Part shown: one piece after another, positions 9,001 through 12,000 of the stretch
Numbering within the stretch: position 1 is the first letter of the stretch
How the letters are laid out: each line of letters opens with the position of its first letter
Source: a virus
Lineage: Duplodnaviria > Heunggongvirae > Uroviricota > Caudoviricetes
Strand: one strand, 5' to 3'
DNA length: 13,451 nucleotides
Virus record (IMG/VR): IMGVR_UViG_2531839664_000017
Made by a program: the position numbers

Positions 9001-12000
9001 GCTTCCGCTGGTCAGGCGCAGACTGAAGCGCACGCCCTTCACCACCCGCGGCGTGTCCCATTTCGCCAGCGCCAGATACTGGCCGTCAGCGGCGCTCACC
9101 TCCACCGTAAGGTGCTGCACTGCCGGAGGGATGACGCTGTTCAGGGTGCCTGACTGCGGCTCAAAGCTGGCCCCGTTATCCACGATGGCTTCCTTTTCCG
9201 GTACGTGCTGCACCGCCGTGATGGCAAAGGTGCCGTCCGTGTTTTCCCGGATGGAGACACAGCGGAACAGGCGACGACGCAGTGACGGCAGGGAGAGTCC
9301 CCATACACCGTATGTCTCCACACCATCAGGCAGGGTGCTGACCTGTATCCGGTCCGGCGCGGGGTGTGCAGTGATGGCCACGCTCACCGGCTTACCGCTG
9401 CCGTTAATCAGGTTCACCGTGGCGGCACCTGTCTCCGGCAGGGTCACCTCACGGTCCAGTGTCAGGGTGCGGCTGGCGGCATCGATGGACAGGATACGTC
9501 CGCCGGTCATGGTCCCGGCATAGTCGTTATCACAGATTTCAATAATGTCACCGGGTGTGTGACGCAGCCCCTGTGACCCGAGCGTGAAATCCACCGTCTG
9601 CGTTTCCAGCAGTCCGGTCTTTATCACCCACAGCCCGGCACGGTGGGCCTGACCGCGACTGGTGCAACCGAACGCATCCATCTTCAGCAGGTTGCGCCCG
9701 TAGCGCAGTATGGCTTCCGGGTCTTCCACCAGTTCCGTGGAGGTCTGCCAGCCGTTCTGCGGGTCGGTGTAATTCACCTCCACCGCCGTGTGGCGGTCCT
9801 TCAGGGCGCTGAAGCTGTAGCGAAACCCCACGCCGTTATCATCCACCACCACATCGCAGTTGGTGTACGGCCACACCACATCCGACGGGCGGTCCTGAAC
9901 GAACGTCAGCGTCTGGCCGTTCCATACCGGCATACAGCGCATCGCCGAGCAGAAATCACTGAGAACGTCCCACGCCTTACGCTGTTGTGACAGGTACGCA
10001 TTAAAGGTCATCCGCGGCTCTGTGCCCCCGAAACCATCCGGGACCGTCTGGTCGCAGTACTGCGCAATGGCATACAGCGCCCATTTGTCCACGTCTGCCG
10101 CCCCCAGACGTTTTCCCATGCCGTAGCGCGGGTGAGTCAGCATGTCCCACAGGCACCAGGCCGGGTTGTTGCTGTATGCCGGTTTCAGGCTGCCGTCCCA
10201 GATGCCGCTGTACGTGCGTTTTTCCGGGTCATAGTTTGACGGTACCTGAATGATGCGACCGCGGATATGGTAGTTCACCGTCATCTGCTGGCCACCAAAC
10301 TGCTCCGCATCCACCTGCAGCCCCACAATCGCCGTGTTCGGGTAGCACTGTTTCACATCGATGATTTCGGTGTATGACGACCAGAGCGTCTTATTCTGCA
10401 GCTGGTCCGAGGTGCTGTCCGCCGTCTCCCGGACCATCCGGATGTTAAAAGGAAGGGGAGGCAGATTATCCAGAATCACCGACGCCAGAAACTGCGAGGT
10501 GGTCTTGCCGTTAATGGTGACATCCTTTTCCGTCACCCAGTTACCGTTACGCTGCAACTGAATCAGCAGTCGGACAGAAGAGGGATTACGGTCGCCCTTT
10601 GAGGTGGTCTCCAGCAGTGACTGCACCCCGAAGGTGACCCGCAGGCGGTCAATGTTCGCGGACGTAATGGCGCGCGTCACCGGCTTTGCCTTCGTCACGT
10701 CCACGCCCAGTGCGGTTTCAGCTCCGGAGGACTCAAAGCCTTCAGGTGGTGTCTGCTCCTGCTCCCCGGCGCGCCAGACCGCTGTCACACCATGTATCAC
10801 AGGATTACCGTCCGTGTCCGTCAGCGGGGTTTTGTTCACCAGAATACTCTGCAGCCCCTTCACCGGGCCTTCCACCGGTCCCTCACCGATGGCATCAATC
10901 ACGCTCATCATCTGCGTGGATTTGAGATTGTCCTTCGCCTCACGAGGTGTGTGCGCCTTGCCGCCACCTTTGCCCATTGTCTCACCCTTTACTGTGATAA
11001 CTGTTACGCACAAAAACAACAGGCATCCCGGAGGATGCCTGTATCATGACTGAATAAAACTTCTGAATATCTTCACATTTTCACAAACTGACTGTGGTGC
11101 TAATAATTTCTCTGCGTTAATGTTTTTTTTGCCCGAGCACCAGAAACAAAAATAACTCCTTAACGTTAATCTTTGTCTGTCCCCGCAACTCTGCGGGATT
11201 TTTTTATTCTTTTTACCCCTGCCGCCCGATAACCACGACCTTTCCGCCACCGCCTTCATCACGGGTACTGATGTCCTGGGAGATTCGCCGGGAGCCAACC
11301 AGCATTTCACCGTAAGGCACCGGCATCGGGTTCCCCTGGGCAATCATGTTATCCAGCGAGGAAAAGTACGTGTTCTGTCTGCCGTTATCCGTGCTTTTGT
11401 ACTCCGGTACTTTAGCCTTCGGGGCCAGCATCTGAGCCACACCACCCAGAATCATGCTGGCCCCCAGTGAAAACAGCATCGTGGTGGCAGAAAAACCACC
11501 GGCTGCCAGGGCTGAACCCCATAACGCCATTGATGCCCCGGCAGTGAAGAAAGAGCCCACGATGGCTGCCGCCCCCAGCACCACCTGAAAAACACCATTT
11601 CCCCCGGCCCCTGCCAGCCGCGGTACAATATGAATCACGGCCCTCCCGCTCAGCGGTTCATGAAGACGGGCATACACCGCCTCCGGCGCGGTATCCTCAC
11701 CGGCAATACGTATCTGGTACCAGCCTTCGTTCATCTGACCGCGGAATCCCGGCATCTGCAGCGACAGGGCACGGATGGCTTCCGCTGCCGTGTTCACGTA
11801 CAGGCTGAGGCGGCGGCCAAATCGTTGCAAATCCCCGTGAAGGCAGATGCGTGCCAGTGGCGGTGACGCCAGACAGAATGCGTTCGTCGTTGCCATTTTT
11901 CAGAATACCTCTCCCGTTTACTCAGTTGTTCAGGCAGATGGTGAAGCAGCTCACCGTTGCCGCAGTATATGGCGGCATGATTGGCCACCGATGCGCCAAA

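Follow-up and report, generated by a model that had tools for sequence, protein, structure and literature searches.

The DNA analysed here is a stretch of 13,451 nucleotides (nt) from a virus of the class Caudoviricetes (IMG/VR record IMGVR_UViG_2531839664_000017), called the window in the following. It carries a lambdoid tail module, and a small RNA (sRNA) gene appears to be inserted between the tail genes I and J. Positions 11043-11212 most probably form a self-contained, Hfq-dependent, trans-acting prophage sRNA gene of the PasB / EcOnc22-24 family, oriented antisense to the tail operon. An independent plus-strand sRNA, possibly bound by Hfq, had been proposed for this place in a sequence-only reading. 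Homologues at the same position and in the same orientation support the proposal and are experimentally proven: PasB of enteropathogenic Escherichia coli (EPEC) and EcOnc22-24 of enterohaemorrhagic E. coli (EHEC). The identity with a known sRNA, which had been left open, can be given by position and homology as the PasB / EcOnc22-24 family. The unit is predicted to comprise the following parts.

11043-11212, plus strand: sRNA moron proper, about 170 bp with 35% G+C, containing upstream box, promoter, body and terminator
11062-11077, plus strand: dyad-like box TCTGA-N6-TCACA, just upstream of the -35 element
11080-11107, plus strand: sigma-70 promoter from a consensus scan, with -35 TTCACA (11080-11085), a 16-bp spacer and -10 AATAAT (11102-11107)
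11114-11205, plus strand: predicted primary sRNA of 92 nt, if the transcription start site (TSS) lies 7 nt past the -10 element
11130-11205, plus strand: stretch of 76 nt equivalent to the published 83-nt PasB, from alignments to PasB and to the alleles of EHEC strain Sakai
11143-11180, plus strand: single-stranded body, unpaired in RNAalifold on 29 alleles
11182-11205, plus strand: Rho-independent terminator CCCGCA-ACUC-UGCGGG, A, U7, from the scan

The predicted sRNA unit

The I-J spacer (10978-11212) has 235 bp and a G+C content of 38.7%, compared with 57-60% in J and I. It is indeed the AT-rich gap without open reading frames (ORFs) that had been described between the J start at 10977 and the I stop at 11213, and contains only mechanical ORFs of 21 and 23 amino acids (aa) on the minus strand, plus read-through frames. 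A coding reading of the spacer was discarded: these two are all it could build on, and the minus-strand AAGGAG is ATGGAG in the Sakai alleles.

The consensus scan flagged both plus-strand signals of the earlier reading, the sigma-70 promoter TTCACA-16-AATAAT with 10 of 12 consensus matches and the terminator at the right edge, CCCGCAACTCTGCGGG followed by ATTTTTTTAT (11182-11207). A terminator on the minus strand, ACAGGCATCCTCCGGGATGCCTGT followed by TGTTTTTGTG (11042-11009), was also flagged. Over 10700-11500, three terminators were observed against 0.7 +/- 0.9 in shuffles. Promoter calls numbered two, which overlap, against 0.7 +/- 0.8 in shuffles.

The sRNA terminator stops 7 nt short of the I stop codon, read as its complement. 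For the 5' end, 11114 (92 nt) and a position near 11130 (76 nt) are both candidates, an uncertainty of about 16 nt that goes back to PasB, whose ends were derived from read coverage and from a Northern size that is itself approximate. The predicted 76-92 nt compare with 83 nt for PasB and about 85 nt for EcOnc22. The fold of the predicted sRNA has a z-score of -2.96. Its body carries the family-conserved A-rich / C-U-rich AACAAAAAUAACUCCUU, then UUAAUCUU and, just ahead of the terminator, the U-rich UUUGUCUGUC. The first of these is a candidate Hfq distal-face site and seed. Sequence hallmarks of Hfq-type RNAs in the window allele are the 3' hairpin with U7, the preceding U-rich stretch and A-rich ARN-like repeats.

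Of 55 unique modules, 54 carry the box upstream of the promoter; its half-sites are invariant and its N6 is variable. It occurs once in the window, against 0.04 occurrences expected by chance. Nine of the ten core positions agree with the CRP consensus TGTGA-N6-TCACA, and the box may be a CRP-like regulator site. Relative to the predicted TSS its centre is at about -44.5, whereas class II sites are centred at -41.5 and class I sites at -61.5 and further upstream, so neither class fits. PasB is higher in overnight static lysogeny broth than in Dulbecco's modified Eagle medium (PMC8550237), which is compatible with CRP and with other regulators alike. The -10 element is (A/T/G)ATAAT in most alleles.

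Function of the unit may be pictured as follows. In a lysogen, the late operon is silent and host RNA polymerase would start at the sigma-70 promoter (11080-11107). Transcription would end at the intrinsic terminator beside the I stop codon (11182-11205). The product, about 76-92 nt long, would be rich in A and in C/U and mostly unstructured along its body, would contain a U-rich stretch, and would close with a single hairpin and a U-tail at the 3' end. Hfq-dependent sRNAs usually show this layout and leave the seed free. Hfq would bind and stabilise the RNA, as shown for the homologues, and the RNA would base-pair in trans with mRNAs of the host and of the accessory genome, as PasB does in EPEC. 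The seed may be either the conserved, anti-Shine-Dalgarno-like AACUCCUU or the pre-terminator UUUGUCUGUC. The TCTGA-N6-TCACA box may provide control of the promoter.

A 10-bp perfect palindrome, TTAACGTTAA, had also been pointed out, at 11159-11168. It exists, shifted by one base (11160-11169). It is probably incidental, because it is not conserved in PasB, which has TTCACATTGA, or in several other alleles.

Homologues in EPEC and EHEC

PasB (pathogenicity-associated sRNA B) of EPEC O127:H6 E2348/69 is an 83-nt RNA of prophage PP6, encoded on the minus strand of NC_011601.1 (1466343 to 1466261) between E2348C_1436 and E2348C_1437 (Pearl Mizrahi et al. 2021, PMC8550237 Table S6). The genome record has both genes on the plus strand, as I (ending at 1466255) and gpJ (starting at 1466496). 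PasB therefore lies antisense in the I-J spacer of PP6, with its terminator adjoining the I stop. Site, antisense orientation and the terminator next to the I stop are the same in the window unit.

The spacers of the window and PP6 align with 90% column identity. A blastn search of PasB against the window gave 81% identity over 58 nt (E = 1e-7) and a 15/15 match in the terminator. The promoter of PasB, TTCACA-16-TATAAT, has 11 of 12 consensus matches, compared with 10 of 12 in the window, and shares its layout and the upstream box. Both RNAs carry AACAAAAAYAACUCCUU and UUUGUCUGUCCCCGCA. The window allele differs by extra 5' bases (7 in the two-way spacer alignment, 6 in an RNA-only alignment), by 4 fewer bases ahead of the terminator and by a terminator loop that is 9 nt shorter. 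Intact in the window allele are the promoter, the upstream box, the U-run, AACAAAAAUAACUCCUU, UUAAUCUU, UUUGUCUGUCCCCGCA and the terminator with its U7 tail. A five-way alignment keeps the -35 and -10 elements, AAAAAYAACUCC, UUAAUC and the terminator. Among the traits of the family, the antisense I-J site, the homology and an own promoter and terminator that bound an RNA of about 75-100 nt are found in the window unit, which on this comparison appears to be a member.

PasB is well documented. It gave a Northern band of the expected size, and its level in an hfq mutant changed by -6.8 log2 under the activating and by -2.4 log2 under the non-activating condition (PMC8550237). PasB reached a base mean of 482-1082, whereas I and J stayed at about 5-15 (PMC8550237). 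Ligation of interacting RNAs followed by sequencing (RIL-seq) identified 37 partners, with PasB as RNA2 in 99-100% of the chimeras (PMC8550237). A seed just upstream of the terminator was proposed (Zhu, Shabalina and Storz 2026 preprint, 10.64898/2026.05.13.724894). RNAduplex of PasB with a RIL-seq partner near pasA was no better than with shuffles. An 8-9-nt match of UGUCUGUC / GACAGACA in the pre-terminator region, beside the PasB chimera site, is a hint at most.

These observations bear on a different mode of action, in which the sRNA acts mainly in cis on the I-J part of the tail mRNA, by transcriptional interference or by a duplex that RNase III can cleave. Such an RNA would tune the dosage of J or keep the tail genes of the lysogen quiet. 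The arrangement invites this idea: the module is antisense and exactly between I and J at every locus seen, and the complementarity begins 7 nt past the I stop. A mainly cis-acting role is nevertheless unlikely. Direct masking of the J ribosome-binding site is excluded, because the duplex would stop some 150 nt upstream of it. PasB forms chimeras with many unlinked core and accessory transcripts, and it is abundant in lysogens that are nearly silent for I and J. The module is also kept where I and K are deleted and where a cis role in tail assembly would be pointless. The antisense orientation is explained as well by keeping the terminator off the sense strand of the operon.

The second group of homologues of the proposed trans-acting sRNA comes from EHEC O157:H7 Sakai. 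EcOnc22, EcOnc23 and EcOnc24 are Hfq peaks detected by cDNA analysis after cross-linking (CRAC; Tree et al. 2014, PMC4104026). They are located on the plus strand in Sp15 (2902714-2902774), Sp14 (2676643-2676704) and Sp11 (2166694-2166753), respectively (PMC4104026 Table S2). EcOnc22 is about 85 nt on a Northern blot and destabilised in an hfq deletion (PMC4104026). The targets of all three are listed as unknown (PMC7873438). In NC_002695.2, the positions fall inside I-J spacers; the tail genes are on the minus strand and the peaks are antisense. The coordinates of Tree et al. refer to NC_002695.1, and an offset of +135 to +146 to NC_002695.2 was obtained from Rfam matches of AsxR and AgvB1. 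After this correction, the Hfq peaks cover the last 75 nt or so of each spacer beside I, that is, the sRNA body. The assignment of site and strand is independent of the offset, because the uncorrected peaks are still in the spacer and antisense.

EcOnc22-24 and the window unit have the same module architecture and share the conserved AAAAAUAACUCC, UAACGUUAAUCUU and the 3' half of the terminator. In comparison to the window, the Sakai alleles are 12 nt shorter in the 5' body, their -35 element is weaker and CAUCGUUCUCU takes the place of UUUGUCUGU ahead of the terminator.

Judged by sequence and site, PasB of EPEC and EcOnc22-24 of EHEC are one gene family at one phage site. This link is made in none of three publications (PMC4104026; PMC8550237; 10.64898/2026.05.13.724894). 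EHEC homologues are given for PasA, PasD1 and PasD2 and none for PasB (PMC8550237 Table S6), and EcOnc is nowhere mentioned in the preprint (10.64898/2026.05.13.724894). At word size 28, the setting of the 2026 survey for bacterial genomes (10.64898/2026.05.13.724894), PasB as a blastn query retrieved neither the window nor the Sakai alleles. The survey describes PasB variants that differ by few nucleotides, and Pas sRNAs that are usually single per prophage (10.64898/2026.05.13.724894). The miss of divergent alleles at this word size fits the few-nucleotide variation.

In Rfam, no family covers the I-J spacer at gathering or permissive thresholds. The best sub-threshold match, Hrs1 with 22 bits at a cutoff of 56, concerns the terminator only, and so does a match of Arrc14. 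The scan thus ran without a hit at the gathering score, and the family is known from the literature instead. Families considered include AgvB (RF02702), AsxR (RF02703), STnc100 (RF02076) and Esr41 (RF02676). AgvB, AsxR and STnc100 were recovered in Sakai control loci, so the test works. Rfam 15 likewise reported nothing for the PasB locus (L002) and the Sakai spacers (L003-L005).

The anti-sRNAs of EHEC had been mentioned as a possible parallel. AgvB and AsxR are, like the window unit, short Hfq-binding sRNA morons borne by lambdoid prophages of pathogenic E. coli. They do not sit at I-J. Their place is the PR' moron site, downstream of PR'/Q and between a moron coding sequence and the lysis genes, and their sequence is different. 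Identity of the window unit with AgvB or AsxR was ruled out by site and sequence.

Alleles, spread and counter-evidence

An exact-pattern scan of IMG/VR with AACTCC-N25-50-CTGCGGGATTTTTTT returned at least 120 loci. At least 32 distinct alleles are among the loci listed, and all 55 unique spacers examined are at the I-J site. The recurrence at this site in at least 32 alleles places the promoter-body-terminator unit beyond chance. For 26 of the 29 aligned alleles, AACTCC and CTGCGGGATTTTTTT are fixed by the search pattern and their invariance among those 26 is uninformative. AACTCC and the 3' half of the terminator are independently common to the window, PasB and the Sakai alleles. The terminator stem is identical in 29 of 29 alleles, an invariance partly imposed by the search pattern, and the terminator hairpin is the only element paired by RNAalifold.

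Alignments show that the insert varies among I-J junctions. The I-J spacer of lambda has 60 bp and no segment equivalent to 11043-11212, and the alleles are mosaic. A left half with the J leader and the promoter and a right half with the RNA body and the terminator loop are reassorted among them. In Stx2c phages, bases 1-151 of the window spacer are matched at 98.7% identity, and the sequences diverge afterwards.

Of 5426 complete E. coli genomes, 1737 (32%) contain modules that a distant blastn with 11075-11212 recognised as related, up to six in one genome. The window allele itself is at least 99% identical in 278 E. coli records (O121, O157:H7, O145, O55 and others) and annotated in none. 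The 76-nt core is 100% identical in Sakai Sp9 (NC_002695.2 1794545-1794620, minus strand; L164:9546-9621). This prophage has lost K, I and part of L; the module is intact beside J, and of I roughly the last 28 nt remain. The prophage of O157 strain 4276 (L001:8001-8263) shows the same loss of K, I and part of L and the same retention of the module. Retention in these decayed prophages counts in favour of an sRNA gene.

A scan of species-representative genomes with the restrictive pattern yielded 35 matches, 33 of them chance matches in unrelated phyla, and gave no support for the family beyond E. coli-type phages. Two true members were recognised by nhmmer: a 460-bp contig of a Parendozoicomonas haliclonae assembly (L137, E = 1e-24) and a 3.4-kb contig of a Streptomyces flavalbus assembly (L145, E = 7e-22). 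Both contigs are probably contaminants in those assemblies. The nhmmer match to the window is not independent; the window sequence is in the model.

Several points weigh against the window unit as an active family member. The transcript, its Hfq binding and its targets are known from homologues alone and are inferred for the window allele. Global RNA identity to PasB is 72%, with three indels, and global identity to the Sakai Sp11/14/15 allele is 69%. The published 5' end of PasB is 23 nt past the -10 element, not 7, and therefore reflects either RNA processing or an imprecise coverage-based end. RNAalifold on 29 alleles detected no structural covariation in the plus-strand unit, and Rfam appears to have no model for the PasB / EcOnc22-24 family. 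The terminator loop of the window has 4 nt. It looks like the result of an 8-nt deletion between CCGCA repeats, because a window-like IMG/VR allele (L068/L084) has the longer loop CCCGCAGCTCCGCAACTCTGCGGG. No Hfq peak near the identical Sp9 core is present among the 63 filtered peaks of PMC4104026 Table S2. The window allele may be weakly expressed or poorly bound by Hfq under the CRAC conditions used for Sakai. A matching sequence was not found in the TSS supplements of EDL933. The segment GAGCACCAGAAAC is specific to the window allele.

The missing peak at Sp9 would suit a spacer that is an AT-rich recombination junction with a non-expressed sRNA relic as the window allele. The mosaic structure of the spacer, with the divergence of Stx2c phages after base 151 and the reassorted halves, and the deletion in the terminator loop point in the same direction. 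Other observations speak against a relic. The promoter is intact with 10 of 12 matches, the terminator still has a G+C-rich stem of 6 bp followed by U7, and the upstream box and the body motifs common to the PasB and Sakai alleles are all intact. The near-identity of the 278 records across the O121, O157, O145 and O55 lineages also counts against it. A relic is very improbable, and a functional sRNA gene is preferred for 11043-11212.

Tandem arrays with two to four modules per I-J spacer occur in six loci: L088, L042, L087, L108, L036 (4418-4983) and L081 (8173-8742). The array of L088 (9515-10340, sRNA sense on the minus strand) has four modules in a spacer of about 900 bp. Each array module has a TCTGA-N6-TCACA box and its own terminator. 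The bodies differ between modules (AACUCCAUAACG, ACUACUCCUUAAGG, AAAACGCCAACAGG and AAAUUCCUUAAAG), and those of L088 are C/U-rich. The simple scan flagged one of the four terminators and no promoter in the L088 array, because loops are longer than 8 nt and -35 elements are weak.

The J leader, the surrounding prophage and implications

The part of the spacer adjacent to J contains two features on the strand of the tail operon.

11009-11042, minus strand: terminator-like hairpin ACAGGCAUCC-UCCG-GGAUGCCUGU, then UGUUUUUGUG, from scan and fold
10978-11008, minus strand: J leader and ribosome-binding region, with AAAGGGTGAGACA ahead of the ATG, from direct sequence reading

The hairpin is located 32-65 nt upstream of the J ATG. 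Its stem of 10 bp, 6 of them G-C, its 4-nt loop and the UGUUUUUGUG that follows conform to the sequence criteria for an intrinsic terminator. Over 16 alleles, 98% of the cells are paired. A single pair is compensatory, changing from C-G to U-A through U-G intermediates; this is equalled in 41 of 500 shuffles and is not significant. The J leader at 10978-11008 is common to PasB-type and window-type spacers.

Lambda has a comparable element. Its I-J spacer (NC_001416 15445-15504; L008:746-805) contains a G+C-rich hairpin, AAACCGCC-UGCG-GGCGGUUU, and then the U-rich UUUUGUCAUUU, about 25-40 nt ahead of the J start and just before the J ribosome-binding site. Place, orientation and the combination of a G+C-rich stem with a U-rich run on the operon strand agree with the window. 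The sequence is unrelated, the whole spacer has 60 bp and an sRNA module is absent. The lambda hairpin escaped the simple terminator scan. To our knowledge, neither hairpin has been the subject of a functional study.

Read against lambda, the hairpin at 11009-11042 is an ancestral feature of the J leader, separate from the sRNA insert. The minus-strand terminator of the sequence-only reading is thus real as a hairpin with a U-tract, while its role as the left bracket of the insert falls with the lambda equivalent. The moron is consequently about 170 bp (11043-11212) and not the 235 bp originally assigned to it, because the hairpin belongs to the J leader. The CA-rich tract ACGCACAAAAACAACA that had been noticed next to the hairpin is present, merely as the complement of the U-tract of this terminator. 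From what is established for lambda, late transcription modified by Q should read through the hairpin. The hairpin may insulate J in the lysogen against unmodified polymerase, or it may stabilise the mRNA.

The hairpin is the basis for a reading with the functional RNA on the minus strand. This RNA would be a short transcript or a fragment of the I 3' untranslated region ending at 11009-11042, or the hairpin itself would attenuate or insulate J; in that case the signals of the window allele on the plus strand would be decayed or incidental. With its 10 pairs, 6 of them G-C, the hairpin is the strongest terminator-like site of the region, and its pairing is kept in all lambda-like J leaders seen, with the analogue in lambda. 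A minus-strand RNA is quite unlikely on the other evidence: the scan found no minus-strand promoter-like site in the spacer, no sense I-J RNA tagged E2348C_1436/1437 is among the EPEC RIL-seq entries listed, and in EHEC the Hfq peaks are antisense. Covariation of the hairpin is weak. The lambda hairpin exists without an sRNA module and is hence a separate feature, which leaves the plus-strand sRNA gene as the preferred reading of 11043-11212.

In Sakai-type J leaders (L003:4694-4772; L023, L088, L108), the heptamer TCAGACA, or GACATCA in the other register, is present in one to four copies between the hairpin and the J start. It forms a small leader repeat of variable number.

The tail genes around the spacer are all on the minus strand.

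12543-13241, minus strand: L, lambdoid tail module
11794-12537, minus strand: K, lambdoid tail module
11213-11896, minus strand: I, tail assembly protein (PF06805, E = 1.9e-14), stop codon at 11213-11215
7585-10977, minus strand: J, tail tip / host specificity protein with a lambda-J-like N-terminus, RefSeq start
6919-7518, minus strand: Lom, lambdoid tail module
5733-6860, minus strand: tail-fibre N-terminal gene, lambdoid tail module

The N-terminus of J, MGKGGGKAH... with its Met-Gly-Lys-Gly start, agrees with lambda J and places the ATG at 10977. In RefSeq, gpJ of the identical locus starts at the same base. A longer J ORF from TTG 11019 is mechanical only and was rejected.

Bases 1234-13451 of the window (91%) are 100% identical to a prophage of Shiga-toxin-producing E. 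coli (STEC) O121:H19. The first 1233 bases are outside the co-linear match to the best-matching O121 genomes. Two copies of an IS3-family insertion element are present, and Rfam recognises an ALIL frameshift pseudoknot in both (114-120 bits).

266-381, plus strand: ALIL pseudoknot in the ORF 36-1455 (plus strand)
4872-4988, minus strand: ALIL pseudoknot in the ORF 4056-5269 (minus strand)

The tail-fibre gene 5733-6860 is apparently truncated; its 3' end adjoins the minus-strand copy. Effector cargo is located downstream of the tail fibre. A 333-aa ORF (1713-2714, plus strand) has a C-terminal NleG domain (PF06416). A 201-aa ORF (2939-3544, minus strand) has no Pfam match; RefSeq genomes annotate a 'secretion protein EspS' in the region.

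The class of sRNA is already known from EPEC and EHEC. The window unit is another allele, and the finding alone changes little. Modest novelty lies in the window allele, in connecting PasB to EcOnc22-24, in how broad and modular the family is, and in the conserved upstream box. The 37 RIL-seq partners of PasB become ready hypotheses for the targets of EcOnc22-24, because these targets are listed as unknown and the RNAs belong to the same family. The family is much broader than in the PasB survey based on 28-nt words and reaches about a third of the complete E. coli genomes. This breadth includes unannotated alleles like that of the window in O121, O157 (Sp9), O145 and O55 STEC.

The shared upstream box may represent a common regulatory input, and some phages stack cassettes. 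It is conceivable, if doubtful, that the I-J junction is a landing pad for exchangeable and stackable sRNA cassettes with a common operator TCTGA-N6-TCACA, a promoter, a diversifying body and a common terminator. If this were true, prophages would carry a co-regulated, fast-evolving set of Hfq sRNAs that differ in the targets they recognise. PasB, EcOnc22-24 and the window allele would then be single cassettes of one system, much larger and more varied than in the picture of the 2026 survey. The sharing of alleles, the box and the stacking bear on how prophage sRNAs are wired into host regulation in Shiga-toxin-producing strains.

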